Source: an uncultured virus (IMG/VR IMGVR_UViG_3300025003_000394)
Lineage: Duplodnaviria; Heunggongvirae; Uroviricota; Caudoviricetes
Length of the DNA: 64,000 nt
IMG/VR virus record: IMGVR_UViG_3300025003_000394
Reading direction: 5' to 3' (one strand)
The translations under genes and the position numbers were made by a program. Below are positions 162-56,513 of this stretch, piece by piece (the first letter of the stretch is position 1; the number at the start of each line of letters is the position of its first letter). The notes under the pieces are model-generated. The model saw only the letters and a program-made list of their open reading frames with translations. It did not search any database and had not been told where the DNA came from.

Positions 162-225
162 GCGCAATTCATCTCCACCCAAACTGCTACGCAGCTATGG
201 ACGGAGTGTTCTTGCTGTCGTTCCG
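162..225 (+). mobile_element. IS200/IS605 (IscB-type) right-end-like hairpin inserted into the 3' end of the first ankyrin-like gene
   Basis: GCGCAATTCATCTCCACCC...GGACGGAGTGTTCTTGC resembles the element end at 62286-62326 (GGCAATTCATCCCCCC...GGATGGATTATCCTTGCC) and supplies the atypical tail GTTARTLRP of ORF 195..1148. Confidence 0.6.
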
Positions 226-1148
226 ATAAAACTATACTCCCATAATAAATCCACAATAATGAAATGACTGTTTAAATAAGCCATTTCGATAAAATATGAG
301 TGTTCTTGGAATTTCTTGTAAGTTCTTGAATGTATAAATGTGTTAATAATTTCTGAATTTTCAAGGGAAATAATTTTTTTAATAATTTCTGTAATATAAG
401 CATACTTTTTTATTGATAATTTTGAGCTTATAAGCTTTTTAAATAAATCTATTTTTTTATCTTCCAGAGATTCTTTTATAATACTAAAGAAACAATAATC
501 AGAATCGTCATATCCTAGTTTAGGCAATAATAAAAGAATCAACTCAGTAGGATCTTTTTTGAAATTGTTAAAGAGTTGTTTTTTATCCCAACCGATATAG
601 CCAAATCGATCATCACTGAGTAATAATTCCACAACCTCAATATTACCATAATAAACGGCATAATGTAAGGCCAATTGTTCTTCTGAGCAGTGTGGGAATC
701 GATTATCAGATAATAATAATTTAATAATATCAATACGGGAATAATTACAAGCAATCAAAAAAGGCTGAGTAACTTTTTTATTAATAATAAATCGATGGTC
801 AGCTAAAAAAACAATAAGTAAATCAATAAAATTAAGGCGACATGCTACAGTGATTGGATGAGTGTTAAATGAAGTTTTGGAAATTCGAGGATCACTAAGG
901 ATTAATTTAGCATTTTCAATATAATTTCTTTGTGCGCAAATTTTTAAAAGGTAATTAATTTTAGAATTAGGATTAAATCTAGGGTCAGAAATTAATAACA
1001 CAAAAATATCATTATGTCCTAAAAATAAAGATAACCTGAGTAATGAACTGCAATTAGCCTCTGTATCAATATAGCTGTGAGTGTTAAGGAAAAGCGTTAC
1101 ACCATTAATGTTATTTTGATTAATGTAATTAAGTAATGTTTTACTCAT
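195..1148 (-). CDS. Ankyrin-repeat protein; C-terminus probably truncated by an IS-end insertion
   Basis: Repeated 'A..G..IV.LLLSD.RF' units (e.g. LALHYAVYYGNIEVVELLLSDDRF); GGAGG RBS. Confidence 0.75.
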   Translation of the reverse strand: MSKTLLNYINQNNINGVTLFLNTHSYIDTEANCSSLLRLSLFLGHNDIFVLLISDPRFNPNSKINYLLKICAQRNYIENAKLILSDPRISKTSFNTHPITVACRLNFIDLLIVFLADHRFIINKKVTQPFLIACNYSRIDIIKLLLSDNRFPHCSEEQLALHYAVYYGNIEVVELLLSDDRFGYIGWDKKQLFNNFKKDPTELILLLLPKLGYDDSDYCFFSIIKESLEDKKIDLFKKLISSKLSIKKYAYITEIIKKIISLENSEIINTFIHSRTYKKFQEHSYFIEMAYLNSHFIIVDLLWEYSFIGTTARTLRP

Positions 1149-1420
1149 GCCTCCCTCCCTACTTTAATTAATATAAAATATTATACAGAAAAATACATGA
1201 AAGATAAAGTGTTTTTTGTAAATTAAAAATCGATAACTTTTGGCAACAAAATAAAAGAGTTGCAACCTAAATATTATTATTTTAACAAACTAGGAACCAA
1301 ATATTAGCCTATAATGTAGCATTGATATTTTTATAAGTGTTAATAATTTGATTAACTTTGTTTTTTAAGTCATCTGACATGTTCCTTTGTCCTTTATTTT
1401 AAATTATGATATGCCTGAAA

Positions 1421-2116
1421 TTAAAAATTTACAATTTTTGAATTTACATCGTAATATAATGCAATATTCTTTAATTTAGAATAATTAGATCCTGAGATAG
1501 ATTTGATTCCATCCCTAATATTTTTTTGAAGAATAAGGAAATCAACAACTTGAGTGCTTCGTCTTTTGAACGATTCTGTATATAATGCTCCTGCGTTAAG
1601 ATAGTTTGAGCTTTGAAAGCAATGTTTTATCGCGATATTATTCTTATAAGAAAAGTCTACATTGTATGATTTAATAAGTAACTTAATAACATTTAGACGA
1701 CCATGCTGTATTGATAAAGCTGTGATTTCATCTAAATCAAGTTTTTCTGAAGGTGTAATTGATATGAATTTCTTGAGTGCATTAATTTTTCCAAGTGATG
1801 CTGACTTTTTTATTCCTTCAATATATGATGCCTGTTTATTATATTTATTATGTGCTAGAAATTTATCTAATATACGGATTGGATGGCTACTAATAATATT
1901 CTCCACTATTTCAGTTTGAACATTAGCACTTAAAATATCATCATCTAAGTCAAGAAGATCAAAGAATAAATCATAAAATTTATGTTTTAGGCAGGTATGG
2001 TAAAAATATTCTAAGTCAGCAACTTGCATAGAGTTTATTTTTTTAGTTAAATTTTCAAAACTATTAATTCTAATAAATTGAGCAATAATTTCATAATCAG
2101 ATTTTTTTTTAAACAT
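1421..2116 (-). CDS. Ankyrin-like repeat protein (paralog 1 of 3), KIVNF tail
   Basis: SIQHGRLNVIKLLIK..VDFSYKNNIAI motif; similar to the next two ORFs. Confidence 0.65.
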   Translation of the reverse strand: MFKKKSDYEIIAQFIRINSFENLTKKINSMQVADLEYFYHTCLKHKFYDLFFDLLDLDDDILSANVQTEIVENIISSHPIRILDKFLAHNKYNKQASYIEGIKKSASLGKINALKKFISITPSEKLDLDEITALSIQHGRLNVIKLLIKSYNVDFSYKNNIAIKHCFQSSNYLNAGALYTESFKRRSTQVVDFLILQKNIRDGIKSISGSNYSKLKNIALYYDVNSKIVNF

Positions 2117-2133
2117 AGTTAGTCCTGTTTTAT

Positions 2134-2778
2134 TTAAAAATCATTAATTGATTTCTGTAATTTCATTTTAGTAATATAATTCATAAGAGAGACGAATTTA
2201 TCGCGATATAACTCATCCTCTTTTTTTATTGTAATTTTATGCAAAAGGAAGTCAACTATTTTCATTTTATTGCTTAAATAAGCACTAATTATGATTTGAT
2301 TATTATTTATGCTTGGTTCAATATTGAAATGTTTTAAAATTACTTTAATAATAGATAGGTGTCCATTTTGTGAAGCAAAAATAAGGGATTTATATAGAGA
2401 TTCATGACTAAATGGTATTTCTGCTGCTTTAATTAAATATCTTAGAACTCTTATTCTTCCATATTGAGCTGCTTTAACGAATTCATGATCAAATTTTTTG
2501 AGTATAGTAAATTTTTCATGAGAAACAAACTTGGTAATATTATCAAGTTTGTTTTTACGAGAAAGATAGCTTAATATAATACGCTGTGTTCTATCTTGAA
2601 TCGGATCATTGGTGCAGTTAATGATGGTGAAAAGAAAATCAATCTTATCATTTTTACAGCAAAATTCAGCTAAATAATCTATATCTAAGTATGTATTATT
2701 AATTGCTATTTCTAGAAAGCATTCTGTGTTACCTTCCAATATGCATTTGGTTAATTTTTCATGATAGTTACTTGACAT
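2134..2778 (-). CDS. Ankyrin-like repeat protein (paralog 2 of 3)
   Basis: AAQYGRIRVLRYL, ASQNGHLSIIKVIL..IEPSINNN. Confidence 0.7.
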   Translation of the reverse strand: MSSNYHEKLTKCILEGNTECFLEIAINNTYLDIDYLAEFCCKNDKIDFLFTIINCTNDPIQDRTQRIILSYLSRKNKLDNITKFVSHEKFTILKKFDHEFVKAAQYGRIRVLRYLIKAAEIPFSHESLYKSLIFASQNGHLSIIKVILKHFNIEPSINNNQIIISAYLSNKMKIVDFLLHKITIKKEDELYRDKFVSLMNYITKMKLQKSINDF

Positions 2779-2849
2779 ATTAGCCTTGAATTAAGTATTG
2801 TGTAATGCATTATATAAAATATTGAACGCAAAATCAACATATTTTATAT

Positions 2850-3536
2850 TTAAAAATTTGAAATTGTAGTAGCCAAATTATGAATGATTATTAGGTTTGC
2901 TATTTCATTTTTAGTAGAATTATTATATTGGTAGTTAGACCTAATATTGGTGTAATTTTTAATAAGGAATTTAACTGTGCTATGACGCCCAAAAATAAAA
3001 GCTGAATTCAGTATTTCACTTCCTTCAAAACTAGGATCAAAGTTAAAAAAATCAATTAATGCCTTAATAGTATTGGAGTTTCCTTTTGTCGCGGCCAAAA
3101 CCATAGACTTCCTATAGTCATTAAAAGCGATAGAACAGGGATTGATAATATTAAATAAATGCGCTAATGCTTTATTTCTTGAATATCTCGAAGCTTTAAT
3201 AATAACAGATCCAATTTCAGTGCTATTATTGAGATAAATAGTAAATTTTTTGTGTTCTACAATTTTTTTAAATAATTTCAAATTATAGTAAGTTAAAAAA
3301 TAATTTGCAATATAGGCTTGTATATATGGGGATAGTGCTTTTTCATTAAAATTAATAAGAAAAAATGTGCTCTTAAAACATTTTTTTTCTAATGAGAATG
3401 TAATTAAATATTCAATATCTGGATGACAAAAATCAATGAGAGCATTAGATAATAAATCTAAATCCTGTTTTTCGACCAAAGAAAATAACTCAGCGTAAAG
3501 TATTTTTTTTGCACTCACATGTTTGTTTTTCATCAT
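2850..3536 (-). CDS. Ankyrin-like repeat protein (paralog 3 of 3)
   Basis: AATKGNSNTIKALI..FDPS; AFIFGRHSTVKFLI. Confidence 0.65.
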   Translation of the reverse strand: MMKNKHVSAKKILYAELFSLVEKQDLDLLSNALIDFCHPDIEYLITFSLEKKCFKSTFFLINFNEKALSPYIQAYIANYFLTYYNLKLFKKIVEHKKFTIYLNNSTEIGSVIIKASRYSRNKALAHLFNIINPCSIAFNDYRKSMVLAATKGNSNTIKALIDFFNFDPSFEGSEILNSAFIFGRHSTVKFLIKNYTNIRSNYQYNNSTKNEIANLIIIHNLATTISNF

Positions 3537-3635
3537 TTTTTTTACAAGAATACTTTTTAATTTAGGTAAAAAAGTATTGTCTTGCCCTACTCCTTTGATT
3601 TTTAGTTTTTTTTATAAAAAAATAAGTTGTAAAAG

Positions 3636-3854
3636 CTATAGTGAATGAGCTAAATCAACAGGACAACCTTTATCATGTTTTACACGTAATTTAATAGCGT
3701 TTGTTGTTGAAGAACACTGATTATCTTTTGCCGAACGTAAGCACCAATTGCATTGAATTTCAATTAAACCTTCAGATTTTGGTGTTGATATACGATTATA
3801 CCCTAGTTCGACTAAGGCTCTAGCTATCTTAATTGAATCATTATTGTTAATCAT
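3636..3854 (-). CDS. Small hypothetical protein, possible Zn-binding
   Basis: CNWC ... HDKGCP motif; AGGA RBS. Confidence 0.5.
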   Translation of the reverse strand: MINNNDSIKIARALVELGYNRISTPKSEGLIEIQCNWCLRSAKDNQCSSTTNAIKLRVKHDKGCPVDLAHSL

Positions 3855-4114
3855 TTTAATCCTAGGACATTAAACATACAGTTATTATACTTATATATAT
3901 GAGAGAAGCAAGGTTTATTTATCGAACTCTAAGCAAGAAATATTGATAATTTAAATAATTGTTGTATATCTTAATAATTTCACAATAAGTGCTGTAAATT
4001 AAAGCAGGAAGATGGTAAAATAAGCTATATTTTGTTAGTAAAAAGACACCAAGACATCCAATAAAAAAAATTAATGAAAATTAACAATAAAAGAGTGATA
4101 AAGGAAAGTATAAT

Positions 4115-4801
4115 ATGTATAAAGAAAGCACTAAAGAAAAAATACTTAATATGGTTGAAGAGTTTTTTTTGGATATTAATGACGGAAACCAAATTAATGT
4201 TACAGTAAATAATGTGACAAATATAGATAGAAAGAAAAATATTCAAGATAAAGTGCTACAGTTTATTATGATTGCCCAATTAATATTATTTTTATCAATA
4301 TTATTGGTTTTATCACATTATTTAAATGAGATTATTTTTATTTTATCATTTAGTGTATATTGTTTTTTTTGTATTAATGTAATGCGCCAATATGTAGGGG
4401 GGTTTTTAAAGGATAACGTAGTGAAGAACGAAATAATGAGAGACATTATAGCTATACCTCTTATGTCAATAATATTAATTAATAAAAGCATGTACTGGTT
4501 TCTTAAAAAAATAATTATATTTAGTGAGGAAGTTACTATAGAGGGAGTTATTCATACAATCAACACTAATGTATTTGGTGAGGAATTTTGTTTACTAAAC
4601 GGAAAGTTAAATAGGGAAGACGGTAGGCCAGCAGCAATAACAATTAAGGGTAAAATATTTAGTTTTAATGGAAATGTGTTTCATAAACAATGTAGGAATT
4701 TTAAAACAAGTAAAGAAAAAAAAACTATTTCAATTACACCTTCAGAAGTGAAGGAGAAAATAGTTATTTTAAAATTAACCCATAAGTTGAGTAAATTTTA
4801 G
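4115..4801 (+). CDS. Membrane protein with LNREDG-PA motif, KLSKF tail
   Basis: Hydrophobic helices then GKLNREDGRPAAI; AAGGA RBS. Confidence 0.6.
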   Translation: MYKESTKEKILNMVEEFFLDINDGNQINVTVNNVTNIDRKKNIQDKVLQFIMIAQLILFLSILLVLSHYLNEIIFILSFSVYCFFCINVMRQYVGGFLKDNVVKNEIMRDIIAIPLMSIILINKSMYWFLKKIIIFSEEVTIEGVIHTINTNVFGEEFCLLNGKLNREDGRPAAITIKGKIFSFNGNVFHKQCRNFKTSKEKKTISITPSEVKEKIVILKLTHKLSKF

Positions 4802-4847
4802 GAATATGAACGAGAATCCTCGGTAATTAATTGCCGAGAAGAAGCCA
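4797..4847 (+). repeat. Dispersed ~50-bp palindromic repeat, copy A (IS200/IS605-end-like)
   Basis: TTTAGGAATATGAACGAGAATCCTCGGTAATTAATTGCCGAGAAGAAGCCA; near-identical copies at 22209, 43104, 44414. Confidence 0.85.
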
Positions 4848-4852
4848 TTACA

Positions 4853-6109
4853 TCAAAATAATGAAAGTTTATTCTGTGTTGATTTTGCTAAAAGTTCATT
4901 GTAAATGTCTAAATTTGTATATTTTAAATTTTCCCTTAAATATACATTATTCCAAAGCAAGTCAACTATTTCAAACCTATCCCTTTTTTTTGCAGATAAA
5001 ATTGGATTTATTCTATATTTAAATTTTTGAAATCGATGGTCTTGTATTAATATTTTTGCAATATTAATATCTCCACGATGAATTGATTGCAAAATGAAGT
5101 GAATTTCCTTTTTTTTAAAATCAAGGCGTTTATCAGATAGTAATGCTGATACAAGATTATAATCACCATTCCTTATTGAATAGCTAGTGCATAAAACTTT
5201 AAGAATAAGTAAATCTTCCTCTTTACATTTTTCTCTTGAAATAAGAGATATTAATGAAAACGGGTGCTCTGAATATACTATATCTAGTGAGAGTAATTGA
5301 ATTAAATCAAAAAGGCCATCTTTAAGTGTATCAAGAATGTCTGATTTGTTTGATTTTTGTAAGTGAATTCGCTCATCAAGCAATAATAATCTAACAAAAT
5401 CAATTTGCCCTAAATACGCTGCTATATGTAAGCAATGATTGTTATTAAAAGCAGGCGATATAGATTGAATTTTAAGTAATAGTTTAAATGCATATAAATT
5501 TTTACGTTCACACGCAAAGGAAAGTAAATAGTTGTGCTCTATTGATAATTTTGCCTTATTACTACTGATAAATAGATCGAGTATGCTATCCTTAAAATAA
5601 TATATTGCTGATTCAAATGCACTTCTATCTTCCAATCCTTTATCTAATGGCAGAACTGAATCATAAGACATTAACTTTTCAACAATGGATAAGTCACCTA
5701 TTTCTGTTGCCTTCCTAAGTGCCTTGTTATTTTGATATGAAGGGTTAAAGTTTTTGCAACTTAATAAAAAAGATGATAGTTCTGAATTGTTGGATTTGAT
5801 GGAGTTAATAAAAAAAGCTTGCTTATTAATTGTTGAGTAAACTCGCTCATCTTTAATAAGTAATAGTTTTATTTTCTGATTATTAGTTGCTTTAATAGCT
5901 CTGTTATTTTTTTTAGAAGGGTCAATATTGAAGTAATTAAGAAGATGCCTTACAATATTAAATTGATTATATTCTGCCGCAGCAAAAAAAACATAGTATA
6001 TAAATTCTTTATTAGCTAAATTATTTGATAATAAATAGTGAATGTAAGCAAGATTCTTAGATTTAATTAAATCCAATAGCCTCAACTTACTCTGAATAGT
6101 ACATGCCAT
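4853..6109 (-). CDS. Ankyrin-repeat protein, KLSLF tail
   Basis: Multiple 'DPS..NN.A(I/L)' ankyrin-like units; HIAAYLGQIDFVRLLLLDER. Confidence 0.8.
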   Translation of the reverse strand: MACTIQSKLRLLDLIKSKNLAYIHYLLSNNLANKEFIYYVFFAAAEYNQFNIVRHLLNYFNIDPSKKNNRAIKATNNQKIKLLLIKDERVYSTINKQAFFINSIKSNNSELSSFLLSCKNFNPSYQNNKALRKATEIGDLSIVEKLMSYDSVLPLDKGLEDRSAFESAIYYFKDSILDLFISSNKAKLSIEHNYLLSFACERKNLYAFKLLLKIQSISPAFNNNHCLHIAAYLGQIDFVRLLLLDERIHLQKSNKSDILDTLKDGLFDLIQLLSLDIVYSEHPFSLISLISREKCKEEDLLILKVLCTSYSIRNGDYNLVSALLSDKRLDFKKKEIHFILQSIHRGDINIAKILIQDHRFQKFKYRINPILSAKKRDRFEIVDLLWNNVYLRENLKYTNLDIYNELLAKSTQNKLSLF

Positions 6110-9238: not shown

Positions 9239-10900
9239 ATGTGTTCAATTTTAGGTATTTTAGATATAAAAACAGATCCAGTTAAATTAAGAAGCTTGGC
9301 GCTTGAAATGTCAAAAAAATTACGTCATAGAGGTCCAGATTGGTCAGGAATTTATTCCACCAATAAAGCAATACTAGTCCATGAAAGGCTAGCAATAGTA
9401 GGCGTTAATGGCGGTGCTCAACCACTTTATAATCCAGAAAAAACGCATGTTCTCGCTGTTAATGGTGAAATTTACAACCATAAAGAGTTAAGAAAAGATT
9501 TAAAAGTAGATTTTGAATTTCAAACTGAATCTGATTGCGAGATTATATTAGGTCTATATAAGGAAAAAGGCGTAAACTTCCTTGATGATTTAAATGGTAT
9601 TTTTGCATTTTGTTTATATGATGAAGAAAAAGATCAATATTTAATTGGTCGAGATCATATAGGTATTATACCACTATACTACGGCTACGACAAATCAGGA
9701 AATAGATATGTGGCATCTGAGTTAAAAGCCTTAGTGGGTACCTGCAATGTTATTGAGGAATTTCCAGCAGGGCATTACTTGTGGAGTGGGGACGAAAAGC
9801 CGACCAAATATTATGCCAGAGATTGGGAGAATTATGAGAATGTAAAAGATAATACATCATCTATTCAAGAAATAAGAGAAGGTTTAGAGGCAGCAGTTCA
9901 TAGGCAATTAATGTGCGATGTGCCTTACGGAGTTTTGTTGTCAGGCGGTCTAGACTCTTCTGTTATTTCAGCGATTACCCAAAAGTTTGCTAAAAAAAGA
10001 ATAGAGGATAATGATCAAAGCGATGCTTGGTTTCCAAAATTACACTCTTTTTCGGTTGGTTTAGAAGGATCACCTGATTTAAAATATGCGCAGGAAGTTG
10101 CAGATGAAATAGGTACTATTCACCATCCAATTCACTTTAAGGTTCAAGAGGGTATTGATGCAATTTCTGAGGTTATTTATCATTTAGAAACCTATGACGT
10201 GACAACAATAAGGGCATCAACTCCAATGTATTTAATGTCAAGAAAAATAAAGGCAATGGGAATAAAAATGGTCTTATCAGGTGAAGGTGCAGATGAATTG
10301 TTTGGTGGTTATTTATATTTTCACAAAGCACCTAATGATAAAGAGTTTCATGAAGAATTATGTAGAAAAGTATCTAAGTTACATATGTTTGATTGTTTAC
10401 GTGCAAATAAATCAATGGCAGCTTGGGGAATAGAGGCTAGAGTGCCATTTTTGGATAAAGAATTTATGGATATTGCAATGAATGTTAATCCAAAGGACAA
10501 GGAGTGTAAGGATGGTAAGATGGAAAAAAATATACTTCGGGAAGCTTTTGAAGGATACTTACCTAGCAGTGTTTTATGGAGGCAAAAAGAGCAATTTAGT
10601 GACGGTGTAGGGTATAGTTGGATTGATTCATTAAAAGATTATACAAATAAGGAAGTTACAGACTTAATGTTTACTAATGCTAAATTTAGATTCCCAATAA
10701 ATACGCCTGAAACAAAGGAAGCTTATTTATATAGATCTATTTTTGAGACACACTTTCCAACAGATGCTGTTATTAAATGTGTTCCTCATGGTAAATCAGT
10801 AGCTTGTTCAACAGTTGAAGCTTTGGCTTGGGATGAGTCTTTTAATAATAATGCTGATCCTTCTGGTAGGTCAGTAAATGTGCATACTAGTAAATCATAA
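9239..10900 (+). CDS. asnB: Asparagine synthetase B (glutamine-hydrolysing)
   Basis: N-terminal Cys (MCSILG), RHRGPD, HERLAIV, NGEIYNH, LLSGGLDSS, SGEGADE, EARVPFLD; closely matches gammaproteobacterial AsnB. Confidence 0.97.
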   Translation: MCSILGILDIKTDPVKLRSLALEMSKKLRHRGPDWSGIYSTNKAILVHERLAIVGVNGGAQPLYNPEKTHVLAVNGEIYNHKELRKDLKVDFEFQTESDCEIILGLYKEKGVNFLDDLNGIFAFCLYDEEKDQYLIGRDHIGIIPLYYGYDKSGNRYVASELKALVGTCNVIEEFPAGHYLWSGDEKPTKYYARDWENYENVKDNTSSIQEIREGLEAAVHRQLMCDVPYGVLLSGGLDSSVISAITQKFAKKRIEDNDQSDAWFPKLHSFSVGLEGSPDLKYAQEVADEIGTIHHPIHFKVQEGIDAISEVIYHLETYDVTTIRASTPMYLMSRKIKAMGIKMVLSGEGADELFGGYLYFHKAPNDKEFHEELCRKVSKLHMFDCLRANKSMAAWGIEARVPFLDKEFMDIAMNVNPKDKECKDGKMEKNILREAFEGYLPSSVLWRQKEQFSDGVGYSWIDSLKDYTNKEVTDLMFTNAKFRFPINTPETKEAYLYRSIFETHFPTDAVIKCVPHGKSVACSTVEALAWDESFNNNADPSGRSVNVHTSKS

Positions 10901-19395: not shown

Positions 19396-20121
19396 TTATT
19401 GGAATTGACTTATTTTTTCTTGTACATCAACTTTTATAAGATCACTATATAGTTCTGGATAATCTTGCCTTAATGTATTTTTTACACAGGTTTCGTTCCA
19501 AAAAAGTTTTATCGTTTCTTGGCAATTTAAAGATTTTGCTAATATAATGGCTTGATTATTATTGATGTTGGCATTAAATATTTTGCTATTAATAATTATT
19601 TCTAGCATATCGATATGATTATTTGAAAAAAAATCTTTATTTTTTAATACTAAAAGAAAAGGATTGAAGTATTCACTGTATGTAAAATCCTTGCTTAGTA
19701 AAAGTTGAATAGATTGCTTACAACCTATTCCACATGCTGAAATAAAAAAGGCTGTTCCATTAGTCGGATAATTTAAAAACTTAAATAACACATTAATAGA
19801 GTTAATACTTCTAGATCTTAAAGCTGACATTAATGCTGAATGAATGTTTAATGTAGTCTGGAAGTGTGGTTCTTTTAGTAATAAAGTTAATATTTCAGAA
19901 TAATCAATTCTTGCAGCTAATGACAATAATATTTGATAATGAAGGGTGGCTATGAATTTTTGTTTAAAATAAAGATTAATAAAATCAATATTATTATTTT
20001 TGATGGCTTGGGAAAGGCAATAAGTATGTAGAGAAGGAAGATCTTTTATAAGTTCTAACACTGTTAAGTGCTTGCTGTTTTTTAAAGCAATAAGGATGGC
20101 TTCTTTCAATTTGTCTTCCAT
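19396..20121 (-). CDS. Ankyrin-like repeat protein
   Basis: Close paralog of 20220..20939 (YP.NGT, FTY...FNPF, FWNE.CVK.TL). Confidence 0.7.
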   Translation of the reverse strand: MEDKLKEAILIALKNSKHLTVLELIKDLPSLHTYCLSQAIKNNNIDFINLYFKQKFIATLHYQILLSLAARIDYSEILTLLLKEPHFQTTLNIHSALMSALRSRSINSINVLFKFLNYPTNGTAFFISACGIGCKQSIQLLLSKDFTYSEYFNPFLLVLKNKDFFSNNHIDMLEIIINSKIFNANINNNQAIILAKSLNCQETIKLFWNETCVKNTLRQDYPELYSDLIKVDVQEKISQFQ

Positions 20122-20219
20122 TGTTTTTTTTCCAAGATTAAGTTGCTTTAATTTAATAATTCATTATATCAAAATAAGCATTAAATGTAAATAAAAATAA
20201 TAGATTTTAAAGAAAAAAA

Positions 20220-20939
20220 TTATAAAAACTGATTTATTTTACGCTGTATATCTAGTTTTATAAAACATCTATATAGTTCTGGACAATCGTTCATTAATGT
20301 ACTTTTTACGCAGGCTTCATTCCAGAACATTTTTATCACATCTTGATTATTAAAGAACTGTGCGCTCTTAAATGCTTCATTGTTATTCATACTGAGATTA
20401 AAAACATTGAAGAGATGATGTAAAACTTCAGTATATTTATAATAGAAAAAATATTCATTATGTAAAAGCATGTAAAAAGGATTAAAATCTTTATCATATG
20501 TAAAATTTCTACTCAATAAAATATTAATAGAATCGGTATATTTAGTAGAGCAGGCTTGACGTAGTAGAGAAGTCCCATTAAAAGGGTATTCCACAAAACC
20601 TAATAATACATTAAGGCAAGCAATATTATTAGAGTCAATAGCCGTTATTAATGCTGCTTGGAAATTTTCTTTAGTATTAAATAAAGTTTGATTTAATAAT
20701 AATGTTAAAATTTCTGGGCTTGAAGTTCTTGCAGAGAATGATAATAGGTAATAATAATCAAGATCTACTGCAAGATTTTGCTTTAAATAGAAATCAATAA
20801 AGCCAATATTTTTTACGCCAATAGCATATCGAAAAAAGAAAGAGTGGAGTGACACTGAATCATTAATAAGGCTTAATACTAATGGATAATTATTATCTTT
20901 TAAGGCAACAATAATATCGTCTTTTAATTTTTCGTTCAT
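20220..20939 (-). CDS. Ankyrin-like repeat protein
   Basis: Paralog of 19396..20121; upstream region also duplicated. Confidence 0.7.
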   Translation of the reverse strand: MNEKLKDDIIVALKDNNYPLVLSLINDSVSLHSFFFRYAIGVKNIGFIDFYLKQNLAVDLDYYYLLSFSARTSSPEILTLLLNQTLFNTKENFQAALITAIDSNNIACLNVLLGFVEYPFNGTSLLRQACSTKYTDSINILLSRNFTYDKDFNPFYMLLHNEYFFYYKYTEVLHHLFNVFNLSMNNNEAFKSAQFFNNQDVIKMFWNEACVKSTLMNDCPELYRCFIKLDIQRKINQFL

Positions 20940-21050
20940 TATTTTACCTAAGATTAAGTGGCTTTAATTTAATAATTCACTATATCAAAATAAAAATATT
21001 TTGTAAAGTAATTAGTCAGTATATTTTAAATAATATTTTTTATAACTTTA

Positions 21051-21410
21051 TTATTCGAAATAAGAAATTTTTTCTTTTAATTTAAGTAGCTCAATGTACT
21101 CTTCGATAGTCATCTTATATTCTTTAGTAATTCTTTTTTTTGTGCCATCGTAAAGTTCATTAACATTTGTAAATTTTATTTCGTCTGAACTATAATTTTG
21201 CTCGAAGTAAATGAAAGAGAAGGATTTGCTATTACGATTATAAGCAAAAAAAACACAATTAATATACTCTACTGAACCATAAGGTGTAATATCTTCCCAG
21301 TAAGAGAGAAATATAGGCTTATCATAATGCGAATTTTTAAAAAAAAGGTTAATTGATTCATTATTTGATTTATTAAGTTTATCGATATTAAGTTCTATGT
21401 AGTTACTCAT
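21051..21410 (-). CDS. Hypothetical protein, KISYFE tail
   Basis: 119-aa ORF with AGGA RBS. Confidence 0.55.
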   Translation of the reverse strand: MSNYIELNIDKLNKSNNESINLFFKNSHYDKPIFLSYWEDITPYGSVEYINCVFFAYNRNSKSFSFIYFEQNYSSDEIKFTNVNELYDGTKKRITKEYKMTIEEYIELLKLKEKISYFE

Positions 21411-21472
21411 ATTTTTTTCCTATGGGATCTTTTCAATGAGTTATTGTATCAAAATTAGCTTAAAAGGTAAAG

Positions 21473-22129
21473 CTAAACAACTATTTTTTTAATCATTTTC
21501 AATGATTTATTGCAATCATTCCCAACAGTATTTTTAAAATTAATTGCATCATTAATTTCATTTTGAATACTTTCTTGTTCAGCATTAAGCTCTTCATTTT
21601 CCACTTGAATCTCCTGTATAATCTCATAAGCCTTCTTAATCTTAATGATGGCAGTTTTCTTGCAATCCTGATTAGGAGTTAATTTAAAGATTTCTGTCCA
21701 ATAGTAATAAGCTTGTTGAGCATTATGATGATTAACATTAGTGTAGAATGAAAATGAGAAATTGTTTTTAACTGTTGTAATAATGGAGTTACTGTCAAAA
21801 TTAAGCATTTTTTTAATAATAATATGTGTCATATAACCAGATAGGTTTGAAATAAAAGGAAATTTCGGAAATGAAAATGCAGATTGATACTTACATTTAA
21901 TTGATACATCAGTACAGAAGCTAGAAAGAATTACAATGATATATATTGGGATTAATTTGGGCAAACAATAGATTGAGTAAGCAACTAAAGAAAAAACAAT
22001 AACCGAAAATAATAATTCAGATAAAAATATTTTTTTAAAGACTGAAGATGCAATTTTGGAATCACTGTTTTCTAAGCTTATTGCTAAATTAATTTGATTT
22101 TTTAGTATTTTTTTATTAGAATTATGCAT
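21473..22129 (-). CDS. Two-TM membrane protein
   Basis: Two hydrophobic helices near the N-terminus; AGGAG RBS. Confidence 0.6.
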   Translation of the reverse strand: MHNSNKKILKNQINLAISLENSDSKIASSVFKKIFLSELLFSVIVFSLVAYSIYCLPKLIPIYIIVILSSFCTDVSIKCKYQSAFSFPKFPFISNLSGYMTHIIIKKMLNFDSNSIITTVKNNFSFSFYTNVNHHNAQQAYYYWTEIFKLTPNQDCKKTAIIKIKKAYEIIQEIQVENEELNAEQESIQNEINDAINFKNTVGNDCNKSLKMIKKIVV

Positions 22130-22208
22130 TACTTTTTATTCTCCTTTAATTACTATGTAATTATATATATATTCGATTAATGATATCATGTACTGAGTTA
22201 TTAATCAA

Positions 22209-22259
22209 TAGCTTCCTATAGGCAATAAATTACCGAGGATTCTCGTTCACATTCTTAAA
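22209..22259 (-). repeat. Dispersed ~50-bp palindromic repeat, copy B
   Basis: Reverse complement TTTAAGAATGTGAACGAGAATCCTCGGTAATTTATTGCCTATAGGAAGC. Confidence 0.85.
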
Positions 22260-22299
22260 GTTGGTAATAAAGATTTTAATTCAATAAAGTGGAAAAATA

Positions 22300-22328
22300 T
22301 TGACAAATAAAATAAAATGTGAAATAAT
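22300..22328 (+). promoter_or_regulatory. Sigma70-type promoter P1 of attenuator module 1
   Basis: TTGACA, 17 nt, AATAAT preceded by TGA. Confidence 0.6.
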
Positions 22329-22371
22329 ATGTAATATTAAAGTTAAAAACCAATAAAAAAGGAATAAAAAA

Positions 22372-22419
22372 ATGAAAAATAATGTAGCACGATTATTACT
22401 GGCACTCTTATTAGATTAA
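22372..22419 (+). CDS. Leu-rich leader peptide 1 (MKNNVARLLLALLLD)
   Basis: AAGGA RBS; 6 Leu codons (TTA TTA CTG, CTC TTA TTA); followed by hairpin and terminator. Confidence 0.8.
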   Translation: MKNNVARLLLALLLD

Positions 22420-22513
22420 TTCCCTGACTCCTTTTTGGAAGACTGGGAAATAGTCCAGTCTTCTTGTGCAGAAATATCGCCCTTGAAGATAATATTCTTT
22501 AAGGGTTTTTTTT
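22420..22513 (+). terminator. Attenuator 1: upstream hairpin plus intrinsic terminator
   Basis: GAAGACTGG/CCAGTCTTC hairpin (22438-22463); CCCTTGAAGA/TCTTTAAGGG + T8 (22480-22513). Confidence 0.8.
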
Positions 22514-22589
22514 GCATTTTAATTAATGAGGGGATACTGCAAACTAGACATAAGTTATTGAAAAATAAGAAAAAAAATAAAAAAAAGTA

Positions 22590-22618
22590 TTGACAAGTAA
22601 GGAAATGTATGAGATAGT
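22590..22618 (+). promoter_or_regulatory. Sigma70-type promoter P2 of attenuator module 2
   Basis: A-rich UP-like tract, TTGACA, 17 nt, GATAGT preceded by TGA. Confidence 0.6.
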
Positions 22619-22665
22619 GTTTAGTAGAGAAATTAATAAATTACCCCATAAAGGAAATAAATAAA

Positions 22666-22707
22666 ATGAATAATAAGAGCCTCACAAAATTATTACTATT
22701 GACATAA
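22666..22707 (+). CDS. Leu-rich leader peptide 2 (MNNKSLTKLLLLT)
   Basis: AAGGA RBS; CTC then tandem TTA TTA CTA TTG just before the stop. Confidence 0.85.
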   Translation: MNNKSLTKLLLLT

Positions 22708-22793
22708 TATCTAGCCTACAAAAGATGGCTAGATATAAATCTAGTCTTCTTGAAATTAAAAACCTCTTGAAGAATATTTAAGAGGTTTTTTTT
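22708..22793 (+). terminator. Attenuator 2: mutually exclusive hairpins plus intrinsic terminator just upstream of the first tRNA
   Basis: TATCTAGCC(22708-16)/GGCTAGATA(22727-35) competes with GGCTAGAT/ATCTAGTC(22739-46); terminator CCTCTTGAA/TTTAAGAGG + T8. Confidence 0.85.
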
Positions 22794-22805
22794 ATATAAA
22801 ATAAT

Positions 22806-22886
22806 GCGGGTGTACGCAAATTGGTAAAGCGACAAGACTTAAAATCTTGTGATTGTTTGAGAGTTCGAATCTCTCTGCCCGTACCA
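22806..22886 (+). tRNA. tRNA-Leu(TAA)
   Basis: Cloverleaf; CAAGA-CTTAAAA-TCTTG anticodon arm, GAGAG-TTCGAAT-CTCTC T arm, A73, encoded CCA. Confidence 0.9.
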
Positions 22887-22922
22887 AATTTAGTTTGAGA
22901 AGTAATGAATATTATAGATAAT

Positions 22923-23003
22923 GCGGGTGTACGCAAATTGGTAAAGCGACAAGACTTAAAATCTTGTGATTGTTTGAGAGTTCGAATCTCTCTGCCCGTA
23001 CCA
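22923..23003 (+). tRNA. tRNA-Leu(TAA)
   Basis: Identical to copy 1. Confidence 0.9.
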
Positions 23004-23039
23004 AATTTAGTTTGAGAAGTGAAGAATATTGTAAATAAT

Positions 23040-23120
23040 GCGGGTGTACGCAAATTGGTAAAGCGGCAATGCTAAGAACATTGTGATTGTTTGAGAGTTC
23101 GATTCTCTCTTCCCGTACCA
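23040..23120 (+). tRNA. tRNA-Leu(AAG)
   Basis: CAATG-CTAAGAA-CATTG anticodon arm; ACCA end. Confidence 0.85.
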
Positions 23121-23156
23121 AATTTAGTTTGAGAAGTAATGAATGTTATAGATAAT

Positions 23157-23237
23157 GCGGGTGTACGCAAATTGGCAAAGCGGCAAGACTTAGGATCTTG
23201 TGATTGTTTGAGAGTTCGAATCTCTCTTCCCGTACCA
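23157..23237 (+). tRNA. tRNA-Leu(TAG)
   Basis: CAAGA-CTTAGGA-TCTTG anticodon arm with G37; ACCA end. Confidence 0.9.
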
Positions 23238-23273
23238 AATTTAGTTTGAGAAGTAATGAATATTATAGATAAT

Positions 23274-23354
23274 GCGGGTGTACGCAAATTGGCAAAGCGG
23301 CAAGACTTAGGATCTTGTGATTGTTTGAGAGTTCGAATCTCTCTTCCCGTACCA
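23274..23354 (+). tRNA. tRNA-Leu(TAG)
   Basis: Identical to copy 4. Confidence 0.9.
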
Positions 23355-23390
23355 AATTTAGTTTGAGAAGTGAAGAATATTGTAAATAAT

Positions 23391-23471
23391 GCGGGTGTAC
23401 GCAAATTGGTAAAGCGGCAATGCTCAAAACATTGTGATTGTTTGAGAGTTCGATTCTCTCTGCCCGTACCA
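23391..23471 (+). tRNA. tRNA-Leu(CAA)
   Basis: CAATG-CTCAAAA-CATTG anticodon arm; ACCA end. Confidence 0.9.
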
Positions 23472-23535
23472 AATTTAGTTTGAGATTGCACGTATATTTT
23501 GGACGAAATAATAGAGTCAAAAAAATAAAGAAGTT

Positions 23536-23922
23536 TTGGATTTATGTTTAAATGAAATGAATATACAAGAGATTTCATTTGATTTATTAGTTAAGGCATT
23601 AGAAGACGAAAACATTTTTTGTACATTGATAAATTACTACTACAACAATAACTGCCCGTTATTATTAACTAAAGATAATAGTCAGACTCTTGTACGGTTA
23701 TTTAAAATGTTGGTTAAGAAAAATAATGATAAAATGTGGCAAAAAACACTGGGTGTAAAGTATATCAGTCGTTTAATTCCACAGGCTTGTTTGGTCGATT
23801 TATATAAAAAGGGAAATATGAAAATATTAGATTTTGCATTAAGCAAAAAAGAGGTTAGAGAATCAGTATTGAGAAACAATACTAAGGAGTTAGCTCCATA
23901 TCTTAAATTAAAAGATTTTTAA
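23536..23922 (+). CDS. Hypothetical protein, KLKDF tail
   Basis: ORF ending with the family tail; likely start ATG at 23557. Confidence 0.55.
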   Translation: MDLCLNEMNIQEISFDLLVKALEDENIFCTLINYYYNNNCPLLLTKDNSQTLVRLFKMLVKKNNDKMWQKTLGVKYISRLIPQACLVDLYKKGNMKILDFALSKKEVRESVLRNNTKELAPYLKLKDF

Positions 23923-24013
23923 TAACAATTAATTAAAATTAATTATAAAAATAGTGTAATCAATGATATAGTGGCAAGGTAAGTAAAATTAAACTAATTA
24001 TGAGGAATTAATA

Positions 24014-24331
24014 ATGAAAAACAAAATGTTATTAGGTGCTACAGTGATCGCAGTAATGTCTATGATGGGTTCAGCAACGGCTGAAGATTTGGTTAAGCCA
24101 GCATTATTTGGCCTATGTGAGTCTTGTCATGGTGTAGGTGCTAAATCGACAATGGATGGTTATCCAACGTTAGCAGGGCAAAATAAACTTTACTTAATTA
24201 ATAGTATTAACGCTTATAAAAATGGAGAGCGAAGTGGTGGGCTTTCTGCATTAATGATCCCAATGTCAAAAATGATGGCAGATGATGCAAGTGTAGAAGA
24301 AATGGCGACCTATCTCAATAGCTTAAAATAG
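24014..24331 (+). CDS. Periplasmic class I cytochrome c (c553/c4-like)
   Basis: Signal peptide, CESCH haem motif, YPTLAGQ..YL, distal Met; GAGG RBS. Confidence 0.92.
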   Translation: MKNKMLLGATVIAVMSMMGSATAEDLVKPALFGLCESCHGVGAKSTMDGYPTLAGQNKLYLINSINAYKNGERSGGLSALMIPMSKMMADDASVEEMATYLNSLK

Positions 24332-24604
24332 ATTTATATGTTCAGGTAAATATTAAAAGCCCACTTAAGACTATATAGTAAAAACTATATATATCAGTGA
24401 GTGAGTGAGTTCTAACCCTGCATTAGCGGGGCTTTTTAATGTAAGTCGATTATACACAGTGTGTTTATTGGATATGTATAATCAATCAAGCGAAAATTTG
24501 TTATTTTGAAATTGCACTTGAACAGATGTTTTGCAGGATAAAGAGCAATAACGGCAATACATAATGCATAGAATACACTGTATATCCGATTGTTCTCATG
24601 CCAT

Positions 24605-24628
24605 AAAAAAGGCCACTAAAAGTGGCCT
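24605..24628 (-). terminator. Intrinsic terminator
   Basis: AGGCCACT-TTT-AGTGGCCT followed by a T-run on the minus strand. Confidence 0.6.
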
Positions 24629-24688
24629 GAATACACATTATACACACTGAAAGTTACTGTATATAAAAATTTTGGGCTTTTTTTATTT

Positions 24689-25414
24689 TTAAAATAAATT
24701 AATTTTGTGTGACATTACATATTTGTAGTATTTTTCTTTAAATACATTATTTGAGACAGAGGTAAAACAAGGGTAATTAATAATAATAAAATTATTGTGA
24801 TCATTATTTATTAATAATTCGAGAAAGTCAAACTTATCAAAAATTGGGTAATAAAAACTCCTACTTTTTTTAATTGCATTATTTTGCAAATTAAAAGTAG
24901 ATTCAAAAACAGAAAAATCAAAATTATCAAAACAACTTAGTGCTTTAAAGTTTTTGTGTATAAGACTAATTTGTTTGTTTAATTTTTTTTCGTCTAAATG
25001 AAAACCATCAGTTAAAATTTTGGATAAAATAACTGCAATTGTCTTGCCTGAAATTGGGTAATGTTGATTGATGATTTCAATGTTTTTTAGGAGAACATTA
25101 TCAGATTTCTCTAATTTATCAAAAATAACTTCTTTATCAATAACAAGATCTTTATCGTTTAAAATAAGATCAATAATATATGTGTAGCGAGAATTTAATG
25201 CAAAACGAAATAAATCATAGATATAGTCAGTCATATAATTTTTATCATTTATATGTTTTTTAGAGAAATTATACATAAAGAAAAATGATTCTTTTCTATG
25301 ACGATATGCTCCTTTTTGAGTAATTCTACTTAACTGGCCTAAATCAAGCGTCTCAATTTTAATAAGAAGTGCAGAAAGATCATTAGCAGAAATAATTTTG
25401 TTAGCGCTTGACAT
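24689..25414 (-). CDS. Hypothetical protein, KINLF tail
   Basis: Paralog of 25485..26213 (YRHRKESF, PCFT). Confidence 0.7.
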   Translation of the reverse strand: MSSANKIISANDLSALLIKIETLDLGQLSRITQKGAYRHRKESFFFMYNFSKKHINDKNYMTDYIYDLFRFALNSRYTYIIDLILNDKDLVIDKEVIFDKLEKSDNVLLKNIEIINQHYPISGKTIAVILSKILTDGFHLDEKKLNKQISLIHKNFKALSCFDNFDFSVFESTFNLQNNAIKKSRSFYYPIFDKFDFLELLINNDHNNFIIINYPCFTSVSNNVFKEKYYKYVMSHKINLF

Positions 25415-28586: not shown

Positions 28587-29852
28587 ATGGTACTAAAAGA
28601 TAGTTTGTTATTTTATTTTATCGAAAAGTGCAATAGTGATAAAATACTAAAATCTATTTTAGGTAATAATAAGCTGGATTTTCATTCTGCGTATGTCAAC
28701 TCATTAAAGTATAGTGTAAAAACAAAAAATGTAGAAGCGGTAATAGGGCTGTTGAAAAATAAGAGATATTCTGGCTCAGAACCCGAAGAGTTAATATTGG
28801 AAGCTATAAAGTTAGATTCCAAATGCATTGTAGGGCTACTAATAAATAATTCAGTAATAAGTGAGAGTGTAAAGAGACGGTCACTATTAATGTCTGTTAA
28901 TAATGAAGAAATGTTTGAGTTTGTTATTAATAGCATTAAGGTGATTAATGAAAGTAATCAGGCTGTGCTAGAAAAAATAAGTAGGGAAGGCAATGTAGGT
29001 GTTGTGAAAATATTTCTAAAAAATATTGTGGATATAAAAAAAATTAATATAAAATATGCGTTAAAAATAGCAATTAACTCTAATAATAGAGAAATCGCAA
29101 TGTTATTGATATTAAATAAATACTTTAATATAAAATATGGCAATCAAGTTATTTTACCATTATTATTAACTACGGAACATCAGGATTTAGTGGATTTAAG
29201 TGAATTGATATTGCCTCTATTAATTACTAATGGGGATCATTATTTAGTAAATTTATTACTGAAAAGCAATAAAAATCTTTCTTCTGATAAATCAAAATAT
29301 AGATCTTTATTGCATTACACTATATATGTTAATGATATTGATATGGTAAAATTATTAATAAATGAAGAAGGCATTTGTTGTGAGCATTGGGACAAAGATT
29401 TTGTAATAAAAAGCATTGATGAAGGACTTGATTATATTATTGGTTTATTGGAAGACGATAGGTGTGATATTAAGTTTTTTAGTCCAAAAGAAGACGCATT
29501 AAGTGCGCTAATTATTAACTCAAATATAGAACAAATTATTAAAATATTAAAAAAGGATACAAAGATTAATAGTCGAAATATAGAAAAGATTATTTTTGAA
29601 GCTATTATGGTAGGAAATATTAATATTATTGATTACCTATTTAATAATAATTGTTTTTTAGAATATAAAAAGATGGATAATGTATGTTTGCTTGCATTAA
29701 GAATTTGTAGTGAAAATGATAAAATTGGATCTTCTGTACTGAATTGTCTTTGGGGGAAAAAGAATCTAGTTGAAGTGTGTAAAAATAGGGATATTAAAGT
29801 ATTTAATGAGTTAGCGATGTTTGTGCTGAAAAATAAAATAATTGGTTTTTGA
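28587..29852 (+). CDS. Ankyrin-like repeat protein, KIIGF tail
   Basis: SREGNVGVVKIFL, AINSNNREIAMLL, AIMVGNINIIDYL. Confidence 0.7.
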   Translation: MVLKDSLLFYFIEKCNSDKILKSILGNNKLDFHSAYVNSLKYSVKTKNVEAVIGLLKNKRYSGSEPEELILEAIKLDSKCIVGLLINNSVISESVKRRSLLMSVNNEEMFEFVINSIKVINESNQAVLEKISREGNVGVVKIFLKNIVDIKKINIKYALKIAINSNNREIAMLLILNKYFNIKYGNQVILPLLLTTEHQDLVDLSELILPLLITNGDHYLVNLLLKSNKNLSSDKSKYRSLLHYTIYVNDIDMVKLLINEEGICCEHWDKDFVIKSIDEGLDYIIGLLEDDRCDIKFFSPKEDALSALIINSNIEQIIKILKKDTKINSRNIEKIIFEAIMVGNINIIDYLFNNNCFLEYKKMDNVCLLALRICSENDKIGSSVLNCLWGKKNLVEVCKNRDIKVFNELAMFVLKNKIIGF

Positions 29853-53460: not shown

Positions 53461-53533
53461 TAAAACCAGTATTAGTTATGATTTATTATAGCTAAAAATA
53501 AGAAAATAAATATTAAATAAGGTAGAAAGTGCA

Positions 53534-54427
<894 letters not shown>

Positions 54428-56501: not shown

Positions 56502-56513
56502 TATATAAAGTTA

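Follow-up and report, generated by a model that had tools for sequence, protein, structure and literature searches.

How does a single transfer RNA (tRNA) gene come to serve a whole codon family? The question is raised by a 64,000-nucleotide stretch of DNA from an uncultured virus (IMG/VR record IMGVR_UViG_3300025003_000394; the whole stretch is called the window below), in which leucine tRNA (tRNA-Leu) genes with different anticodons stand in a tandem array. The explanation that best covers the whole, and which we consider probable, is that the array consists of six functional-looking tRNA-Leu genes with four anticodons, made from a duplicated unit in a probable phage with bacterial signals. 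A further question, how such an array would be controlled, arises from two leader units directly upstream.

Anatomy and copy number of the array

ARAGORN found six tRNA-Leu genes on the plus strand between positions 22806 and 23471, each of 81 nt including an encoded CCA, with the anticodons TAA, TAA, AAG, TAG, TAG and CAA in that order. An earlier interpretation made from the letters of the DNA alone (the sequence-only reading) had described six near-identical Leu tRNAs with four anticodons and had named ARAGORN as a check; the description is borne out. All six copies matched the Rfam tRNA family RF00005, at 44.2–54.8 bits (cut-off 29), and all six have the features of a tRNA cloverleaf: U8, A14, G18G19, U33, the G53–C61 pair and a TTCGA-type T-loop. 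Tandem Repeats Finder gave a period of 117 bp with 5.9 copies (92% matches, score 1139) and a period of 351 bp with 2.0 copies (96%, score 1279), both with zero indels. The exact 117-bp period proposed earlier is therefore real, and so is the duplicated triplet: the spacers run A, B, A', A, B, with the first equal to the fourth and the second to the fifth, in agreement with the 351-bp period. The 14 nt 3' of copy 6 still match the start of a spacer. The array is far beyond what chance would produce.

A column-by-column comparison of the copies revealed two bodies. Body X (copies 1, 2, 4 and 5) has the anticodon stem CAAGA/TCTTG and the T-loop TCGAATC; body Y (copies 3 and 6) has CAATG/CATTG and TCGATTC. 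Two adjacent pairs of the anticodon stem are thus swapped between the bodies, each on both sides, which is the compensatory change that had been noticed from the sequence. The same comparison upheld two further observations of the sequence-only reading: G37 is restricted to the TAG copies, and copies 1, 2 and 6 have TGCCCGT on the 3' strand of the acceptor stem where copies 3, 4 and 5 have TTCCCGT. Between copies 3 and 6 there are three differing sites.

Public metagenome runs, whose labels were taken as given, bear on the copy number. At least 19 DNA runs labelled aquifer metagenome match the window, at 65–78% of sampled words. Contig pieces from two independent runs of this kind match parts of the array with zero differences, and these pieces cover the TAA, AAG and TAG anticodons and the junction spacers. 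In run X1 the two-copy pieces had depths of 30.2 and 30.9 against 12.1–19.2 for single-copy pieces, a ratio of about 2:1. None of the contigs of the public runs compared with the window spans the array; all break up inside the repeat, where de Bruijn contigs necessarily fragment. The contig pieces and their depth bear out the kinds of unit and, in rough terms, how many copies there are; for the order of the copies and their exact number the basis is the window's own assembly, as no contig spans the array. The CAA copy (23398–23458) had next to no cover in four runs, which has no bearing either way. One piece, from run X20, links spacer B with a TAA-type copy. The window has no such junction, and because the piece has a depth of 4.7 at k = 31 it may be a graph artefact and was not counted as a variant.

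Some other features of the array region were recorded. The minus strand of the array also carries open reading frames (ORFs) of 91, 168 and 85 aa; no Pfam family matched them, and they were set aside, being taken as by-products of the repeat. A sigma-70-like site (TTGAGA or TTAAGA, 16 nt, GATAAT or AATAAT) precedes every tRNA; in the spacers (within 22887–23390) its second hexamer ends at position -1 of the following tRNA, and the stretch before copy 1 (22778–22805) has the same arrangement, though it is otherwise unlike the spacers. These sites are not claimed as promoters, since the start would fall inside the tRNA. On the 3' side the first terminator-like sites are at 24070–24085 (a weaker hairpin with three G–C pairs and a poor T tail) and then at 24416–24431. 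Two ORFs lie at 23536–24431 (+), one of 128 aa without a known family and one of 105 aa that is cytochrome c-like (Pfam E 2.8e-07); because no terminator-like site occurs before 24070 both may be co-transcribed with the tRNAs.

Origin, leucine identity and codon fit

Pairs of array copies with different anticodons are 88–96% identical. In other phage loci the eight within-locus tRNA-Leu pairs are 60–74% identical, and the 23 pairs of the same isotype with different anticodons reach at most 83%. Flanks and tRNA are shared by copies that differ in anticodon, and because the spacers also repeat and the period is exact, the six genes are taken to be recent copies of one tRNA-plus-spacer unit. The variation is concentrated: the 18-nt anticodon arm holds 8 of the 11 variable sites (p = 5e-4), and with the anticodon itself left out 6 of 15 arm sites vary against 3 of 63 elsewhere (p = 0.001). 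This pattern supports the view that the array would have arisen by tandem duplication followed by anticodon change. The idea of one body diversified by tandem amplification, put forward in the sequence-only reading, is likewise supported by the 88–96% pairs, the repeated spacers and the retention of a Leu-like body.

The course of events would then be as follows. A 117-bp unit, consisting of an 81-nt short-arm tRNA-Leu with its CCA and a 36-nt spacer, would have been multiplied by tandem duplication or unequal crossing-over, the copying of a three-unit block being the latest step. Point changes would then have built up almost only in the anticodon arm, giving UAA twice, UAG twice, CAA and AAG. 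An anticodon change within the Leu boxes would keep the amino acid, since the anticodon is not read by the bacterial leucyl-tRNA synthetase (LeuRS), whereas one that led into another box would cause mistranslation and be eliminated. With the array the phage would have decoders of its own for each of the six Leu codons, with the weight on its A+T-rich usage.

Some details of this history can be suggested. The TAG copy keeps states that are common in other phage tRNA-Leu (C20, G26 and the loop CTTAGGA) and may be closest to the ancestor, and the AAG copy is apparently derived from a CAA-type copy, with three differences. All four combinations of body type and acceptor site occur (X-G, X-T, Y-T and Y-G), so that conversion, unequal crossover or repeated mutation is needed. 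The contiguous block of T would be accounted for if an unequal crossover had supplied copy 3 with a 3' end of TAG type. The 'cross-copy homogenisation' that the sequence-only reading had deduced from the acceptor pattern is accordingly unsettled, although the pattern is real: unequal crossover into copy 3 explains it equally well. Conversion or strong constraint is also required by the identity of copies 1 and 2, and of 4 and 5, beside spacers that differ at 4 of 36 positions.

Searches for relatives of the locus gave little. Two tRNA patterns had 0 matches in the viral contig collection, and the 5' tRNA pattern gave four loci in the metagenome contig collection, none related. As candidate relatives of the array, L013 and L015 were rejected as chance matches and L014 and L016 as an unrelated 86-nt tRNA-Leu(TAA). 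The 682-aa neighbour protein found no relative as a query. The MoxR-like neighbour found six distant loci (42–49%) with no tRNA within 10 kb; one of three MoxR-like records searched whole held seven scattered tRNAs, beside which no Leu-rich leader ORF was found. A search with the asparagine synthase AsnB, from which 79 loci were kept (best 69%), gave none of this lineage.

The kind of tRNA was examined through a 20-nt D-arm motif, which occurs in 12 viral loci and lies inside a tRNA-Leu of 75–90 nt in 11 of them. By blastn against GenBank phages, they match tRNA-Leu of Vibrio phages and a crAss-like phage (77–84%). With the anticodon masked, the 20–22 nearest of 192 phage tRNAs (24 of them Leu) are all Leu, the first non-Leu appearing at rank 21–23; since the comparison loci were selected by the D-arm motif, this outcome is favoured for about half of the Leu genes. 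Among 185,579 bacterial species genomes the motif was found at 32 loci only, and in 20 of these it belongs to a short (74–79 nt) tRNA-Leu inside a long multi-tRNA array, mostly of Planctomycetota. All six array copies have A73 before the encoded CCA, a base that is invariant among 17 aligned tRNA-Leu. Their variable region is about 9 nt with no stable stem, and so is not the long variable arm of class II. In sequence, the array tRNAs are short-arm ('type I-like') tRNA-Leu as in phages and mobile tRNA arrays. Charging of a short-arm tRNA-Leu by bacterial LeuRS is described for Streptomyces coelicolor in the available part of PMC6614811, and the array tRNAs would presumably be leucylated.

Three side observations concern the same motif. 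At 3001–3020 (+) of the viral locus L002 it stands outside any ARAGORN tRNA call, and may belong to a tRNA-Leu that is degraded or unusual. In five cyanobacterial tRNA arrays (L033, L034, L036, L040 and L052, at about 1451–1527 on the minus strand) it lies in a tRNA called Gln (ttg), which could be a tRNA-Leu body moved to the anticodon of another amino acid. L036 also holds a 70-nt tRNA-Leu(aag).

Leu accounts for 10.6% of the 18,058 codons of the 61 window ORFs (TTA 965, CTT 387, TTG 224, CTA 220, CTC 81 and CTG 41). The four anticodons of the array are the Watson–Crick partners of the four commonest Leu codons (1796 of 1918, or 93.6%), and TTA, the commonest, is served by two copies. This fit is suggestive of adaptive selection. 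We infer that the array is expressed and benefits codon supply; shortage of tRNA-Leu(TAA) can stop a phage, according to what is available of PMC11726456 on Synechococcus and cyanophage Syn9. Among bacteria an AAG anticodon is rare. None of the 24 tRNA-Leu genes of other phage loci has AAG or GAG, and the part of PMC13249217 available places almost all bacterial tRNA-Leu(AAG) genes in the class Bacilli, with that of Lactobacillales read as IAG and A34 deaminated by the TadA of Streptococcus. The loop of the AAG copy (CTAAGAA) differs from a phage tRNA-Arg(ACG) loop only at position 35, so that deamination of its A34 by a tolerant TadA is conceivable; unmodified, it would read CTT, the second commonest Leu codon.

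The rules that apply to these tRNAs depend on the source genome, probably that of a large tailed phage that occurs in aquifer metagenomes. A Shine–Dalgarno core (GGAG, GAGG or AGGA, 4–22 nt before the start codon) stands upstream of 36 of the 61 window ORFs against 6.8% of random positions, and there are five intrinsic terminators with T runs where 1.0 would be expected. PHROG matches include a nicotinamide-nucleotide adenylyltransferase (NMNAT; 3.9e-122), about 51–55% identical to those of T5-like phages, and a metallophosphoesterase (2.6e-40). A DUF2201 protein has its best tblastn match in a 595-kb uncultured phage (33% over 100% of the query), and its nearest Atlas clusters are 84–100% viral, Uroviricota. 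The 42–49% relatives of the MoxR-like neighbour are on IMG/VR contigs of 108–175 kb (CheckV about 50% complete), and an 89%-identical AsnB is on a 402-kb contig. The premise of the sequence-only reading, that a bacterial LeuRS is concerned, fits the Shine–Dalgarno signal; the anticodon-blindness on which it also depends is background knowledge, and is stated as well in the abstract of PMC11028032. It is hardly credible that the window comes from a giant virus of a eukaryote, to which eukaryotic rules (I34, a eukaryotic LeuRS) would apply. Ankyrin-repeat paralogues, many ORFs without a family, two asparagine synthases and a G+C content of 27% speak for such a source, as does the 35–51% identity of asparagine synthases from giant-virus bins. 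AAG is, moreover, the usual Leu anticodon in eukaryotes. The Shine–Dalgarno signal and the T-run terminators are nevertheless strong, and for this reason a giant-virus origin is rejected; the encoded CCA, nearest tRNAs from phages, a HEARO RNA in the window and nearest protein relatives from tailed phages tell in the same direction.

Three further explanations concern the array itself. It is unlikely that the array replaces host tRNA-Leu cleaved by anticodon nucleases or lost in shut-off, the arm changes being a means of escape. Evasion of tRNA-targeting defences by phage tRNAs through anticodon-loop changes has been proposed (PMC10264068, in the part available), and both the clustering of variable sites in the anticodon arm (8 of 11) and the single isotype, unlike the multi-isotype clusters of other phage loci, would agree with it; the stem changes, however, are compensatory pair swaps and not loop changes at the cleavage site, and the anticodon set fits the phage's own codon usage. 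That fewer than six genes work, the copy number or order being an assembly artefact or some copies being decaying by-products of slippage, is decidedly unlikely. There is no public contig across the array, copies 3–5 have a U–U mismatch and copy 3 combines a rare A34 with the lowest score, but anticodon and junction pieces recur without differences in two other runs, the depth is about 2:1 for two-copy parts, all copies are at least 15 bits above the Rfam cut-off, and the spacers are more variable (5 of 36) than the tRNA sites beyond the anticodon arm (3 of 63). Concerted evolution, in which four old and distinct isoacceptor genes side by side were made alike by gene conversion, is very unlikely. 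It would account for the four body/acceptor combinations, which need recombination or repeated mutation, and for the fact that with the anticodon masked a CAA tRNA-Leu of other phages is the closest to body Y and a TAG tRNA-Leu the closest to the TAG copy. Conversion of the bodies alone would not, however, yield repeated spacers, an exact 117-bp period and no indels, and the similarity to outside tRNAs (at most 63 matches per 78 nt) is below that inside the array.

Duplication followed by anticodon change in a phage is thus preferred, and several points weigh against it. Pfam and PHROG family scans found no phage hallmark gene, such as capsid or terminase, in the 64-kb window, and the tailed-phage assignment is for that reason one that we infer. 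Since the copying of the three-unit block the tRNAs have changed at 13 of 243 positions and the spacers at 0 of 72, a marginal difference (p = 0.045). The searches yielded no relative whose array is smaller or different, so that the order of events cannot be reconstructed. With a variable region of about 9 nt, charging hinges on a LeuRS that tolerates a short-arm tRNA-Leu; three G–U pairs make the acceptor stem weak, the U–U mismatch being added in copies 3–5, and the AAG copy has the lowest tRNA score and lacks G37. RNA-library contigs cover parts of the array, and such libraries can hold DNA. As to use, four of six Leu anticodons would coincide with the four commonest codons by chance in about 1 case in 15, and the match is confounded by A+T bias, which by itself favours these anticodons. 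Selection for the whole Leu set, as supposed in the sequence-only reading, is thus plausible from the codon fit and, for these two reasons, unproven.

Leader units upstream of the array

Two paralogous units occupy positions 22300–22797, between the upstream gene (which ends at 22129) and the array, with a mean column identity of 77% in the unit alignment. Each has, in order, a promoter-like site, a Shine–Dalgarno site, a Leu-rich mini-ORF, hairpins and an intrinsic terminator with a T run (Table 1). The first promoter-like site, P1, is the best promoter match in 21000–25000; the scan found 34 sites against 26.2 ± 5.6 in shuffled sequences, so that a match alone proves little. The start codon of mini-ORF 1 is preceded at 8 nt by GGA and that of mini-ORF 2 at 10 nt by AAGGA. 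After the start codon Leu makes up 6 of 14 codons in mini-ORF 1 and 5 of 12 in mini-ORF 2, each with its Shine–Dalgarno-like site. Among the 835 mini-ORFs of the window (ATG starts, 8–30 codons, both strands) these are the only two that combine such a site with at least 40% Leu, and 49 other tRNA-array loci (2111 mini-ORFs) held nothing comparable. Mini-ORFs 1 and 2 are predicted, from these features, to be translated leader ORFs enriched in Leu codons. CTC or CTG accounts for 3 of their 11 Leu codons against 6.4% of the Leu codons of genes (p = 0.03); these are the two Leu codons that the array reads only by wobble. The second terminator, T2, ends 15 nt before the first tRNA-Leu and leaves no space for a separate promoter; the putative regulated genes lie directly downstream and are tied in function to the codons that would be sensed. 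The array would be transcribed as one precursor from the upstream promoters through both leader/terminator units.

Table 1 Positions of the leader units, tRNA genes and spacers in the window
Feature	Position	Strand	Remarks
P1 promoter-like site	22300..22328	+	TTGACA, 17 nt, AATAAT, TG before second hexamer; 11 of 12 matches
Leader mini-ORF 1 (predicted) MKNNVARLLLALLLD	22372..22419	+	15 codons; Leu codons TTA TTA CTG CTC TTA TTA
Unit 1 switch segments (predicted)	A about 22414-22432 (overlaps stop codon), B 22437-22449, C 22454-22464	+	A:B and B:C mutually exclusive helices
Intrinsic terminator T1	22479..22514	+	11-bp stem 22479-22506, then T run
P2 promoter-like site	22590..22618	+	TTGACA, 17 nt, GATAGT, TG; 10 of 12 matches; aligns with P1
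Leader mini-ORF 2 (predicted) MNNKSLTKLLLLT	22666..22707	+	13 codons; Leu codons CTC TTA TTA CTA TTG
Unit 2 switch segments (predicted)	A 22707-22716 (starts at stop codon), B 22723-22736, C 22739-22754	+	predicted helices
Intrinsic terminator T2	22758..22797	+	14-bp stem 22758-22790, then T run
tRNA-Leu(TAA) copy 1	22806..22886	+	body X, encoded CCA, 54.8 bits
Spacer type A, 36 nt	22887..22922	+	from column-by-column comparison
tRNA-Leu(TAA) copy 2	22923..23003	+	identical with copy 1
Spacer type B	23004..23039	+	4 differences from A
tRNA-Leu(AAG) copy 3	23040..23120	+	body Y, A37, U6-U67 mismatch, 44.2 bits (lowest)
Spacer type A'	23121..23156	+	1 difference from A
tRNA-Leu(TAG) copy 4	23157..23237	+	body X, G37, C20, U6-U67 mismatch, 48.3 bits
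Spacer type A	23238..23273	+	identical with first spacer
tRNA-Leu(TAG) copy 5	23274..23354	+	identical with copy 4
Spacer type B	23355..23390	+	identical with second spacer
tRNA-Leu(CAA) copy 6	23391..23471	+	body Y, 47.3 bits

Downstream of the stop codon each unit has a chain of possible pairings, A:B, B:C, C:D and D:E, of which D:E is the terminator and A:B and B:C are predicted to exclude each other. In unit 1 the 5' arm of T1 (segment D) can instead pair with segment C, the duplex having -10.5 kcal/mol. Pairing is largely kept between the units: for A:B 13 of 14 cells are paired and three of seven pairs have changed on both sides; for B:C 21 of 22 cells are paired, one of 11 pairs having changed on both sides and three on one side. 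In folds of the nascent RNA before the 3' arm of the terminator is made, A:B and C:D form and tie up its 5' arm; folds of the full unit contain the terminator. In folds with the last codons or the stop codon masked as if by a ribosome, B:C forms and the 5' arm of the terminator is freed. The predicted first fold without a ribosome is the read-through form.

This suggests a possible mechanism of control. A ribosome running through the Leu codons to the stop codon would melt A:B and promote termination; one stalled on the Leu codons would leave A:B and C:D in place, and the polymerase would read on into the tRNA-Leu genes. The two serial attenuators could in this way form a closed feedback loop, sensing the speed at which the leader Leu codons are decoded and admitting polymerase only when charged tRNA-Leu is short, a proposal that we regard as possible but more doubtful than not. 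The sensing would include the rare CTC and CTG codons, wobble-read by the array. The structural support is suggestive, and that the units are leader-peptide attenuators at all can be put forward tentatively, the balance of probability being on the other side. Several results count against it. At equilibrium the terminators form with a probability of at least 0.95 under every ribosome mask, and a classical equilibrium switch, in which they would not dominate the ensemble, is unsupported. The switch score was matched by 12 of 200 shuffles for unit 1 and by 23 of 200 for unit 2, and C:D is weak in unit 2 (duplex -6.7 kcal/mol). The pair-shuffle control (65 of 500 and 250 of 500) is powerless with two sequences. 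An RNA-library contig (X20) ends at 22513, in the T run of T1, a point that DNA contigs pass; it is no more than a weak hint.

An Rfam search of 22100–23700 at E up to 1 gave, besides the tRNAs, only sub-threshold matches: PyrR at 28.5 bits, His_leader at 22.2 bits (E 0.68) and NsiR1 at 20.3 bits. No paper describing leader-peptide control of tRNA genes was among the literature matches listed. In contigs of runs X1 and X2 position 22628 is connected, through 30 letters of other sequence, back to 22366; in some genomes of these samples there is therefore an additional or recombinant leader unit, in which a P2-type promoter stands before mini-ORF 1.

Neighbouring genes, significance and comparison with known systems

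Elsewhere in the window a full-length HEARO RNA, an RNA that accompanies IscB/HNH nucleases, was found at 61811–62058 (+; 108.4 bits, cut-off 83). The ORFs beside it (62337–63131, 63159–63944 and 60123–61574) belong to no Pfam or NCBIfam family and include no recognisable nuclease partner. The two asparagine synthases are at 9239–10900 (+) and 49665–51542 (-). The first is 77–83% identical to AsnB of marine Gammaproteobacteria, e.g. Pseudoalteromonas; such identity in spite of the window's 27% G+C suggests a recent transfer from bacteria, and the gene may be a clue to the host. Seven ankyrin-repeat ORFs (195–6109, 19396–20939 and 28587–29852), several of them adjacent and of similar size, have the look of tandem paralogues and are unusual for a phage. 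Five consecutive ORFs of 278–323 aa at 52624–57485 (+) have no Pfam or PHROG family, and their similar sizes suggest another tandem paralogue family. A 922-aa carboxylate-reductase-like protein with AMP-binding, carrier and NAD-binding reductase domains, encoded at 44892–47660 (-), is also unusual for a phage.

The array shows a family of tRNA genes in the course of evolving: spacers are still identical, yet four anticodons and matching arm changes are present. It is a natural experiment in which an anticodon-blind synthetase lets one tRNA body spread over a six-codon family, including an A34 anticodon that is rare in bacteria. The probable phage genome, the short variable arm and the Leu-rich leader units upstream are added here to what the sequence-only reading had seen. 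If the attenuators are real, they would show phages regulating tRNA output by sensing decoding speed, and the purpose of phage tRNAs would become testable, as read-through should respond to the supply of Leu-tRNA; the system is small (1.2 kb).

Among known processes the closest is the isoacceptor shift or remolding of duplicated tRNA genes, treated in the available parts of PMC2997554 and PMC3923123 for Drosophila and other eukaryotes and of PMC4783518 for animal mitochondria, notably their two tRNA-Leu genes. The likeness lies in a duplicated gene with a substituted anticodon, and in a tRNA that resembles a paralogue of different anticodon more than it resembles tRNAs with its own. The present case differs in having four anticodons in one tandem array of a probable phage, with spacers identical between blocks and two stem pairs swapped. 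Phage tRNA clusters and long bacterial tRNA arrays (PMC8421152 and PMC5966550, in the parts available) contain the same short type of tRNA-Leu and D-arm (11 of the 12 viral loci and 20 of the 32 bacterial ones), but they hold many isotypes, with isoacceptors 60–74% alike, whereas the present array is of one isotype and made of recent copies. The 64-kb window as a whole has six tRNA genes by ARAGORN, all Leu, and so is no multi-isotype cluster. The type I tRNA-Leu of Streptomyces coelicolor likewise has no long extra arm and is chargeable by bacterial LeuRS; as far as the available part of PMC6614811 goes it is a single chromosomal gene with a tested synthetase, while charging of the array tRNAs is predicted. 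The tRNA-Leu(AAG) of Lactobacillales (PMC13249217, as available) is similarly an A34 Leu tRNA in a bacterial setting. In the present locus such a tRNA is a single member of a phage array and apparently comes from a CAA-type copy.

Giant viruses of eukaryotic hosts, such as CroV and relatives of mimivirus, have tandem tRNA-Leu arrays with one or two anticodons. They share with the present locus a head-to-tail row of tRNA-Leu genes in an A+T-rich genome, heavy use of TTA and anticodon change inside the row; they differ from it in that the locus has bacterial signals, four anticodons including AAG, an encoded CCA and a short variable arm. The leader units resemble the transcription attenuators with leader peptides that control amino-acid operons (leu, his, trp and thr) in their promoter, Shine–Dalgarno site, short ORF rich in one residue, predicted exclusive helices and terminator before the genes, although Rfam His_leader matches the region only weakly (22.2 bits, E 0.68). 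They are unlike them in that the putative targets are tRNAs that read the leader's own codons and that two units stand in series. The array itself is a clean example of a known process, tandem tRNA duplication with isoacceptor anticodon shift. The novel part would be the attenuators, and the novelty of the whole locus is conditional on their being real. What sets the locus apart is the combination: an array of one isotype in a probable phage, four anticodons including one with A34 from one young body, a short arm, and leaders with Leu codons upstream.

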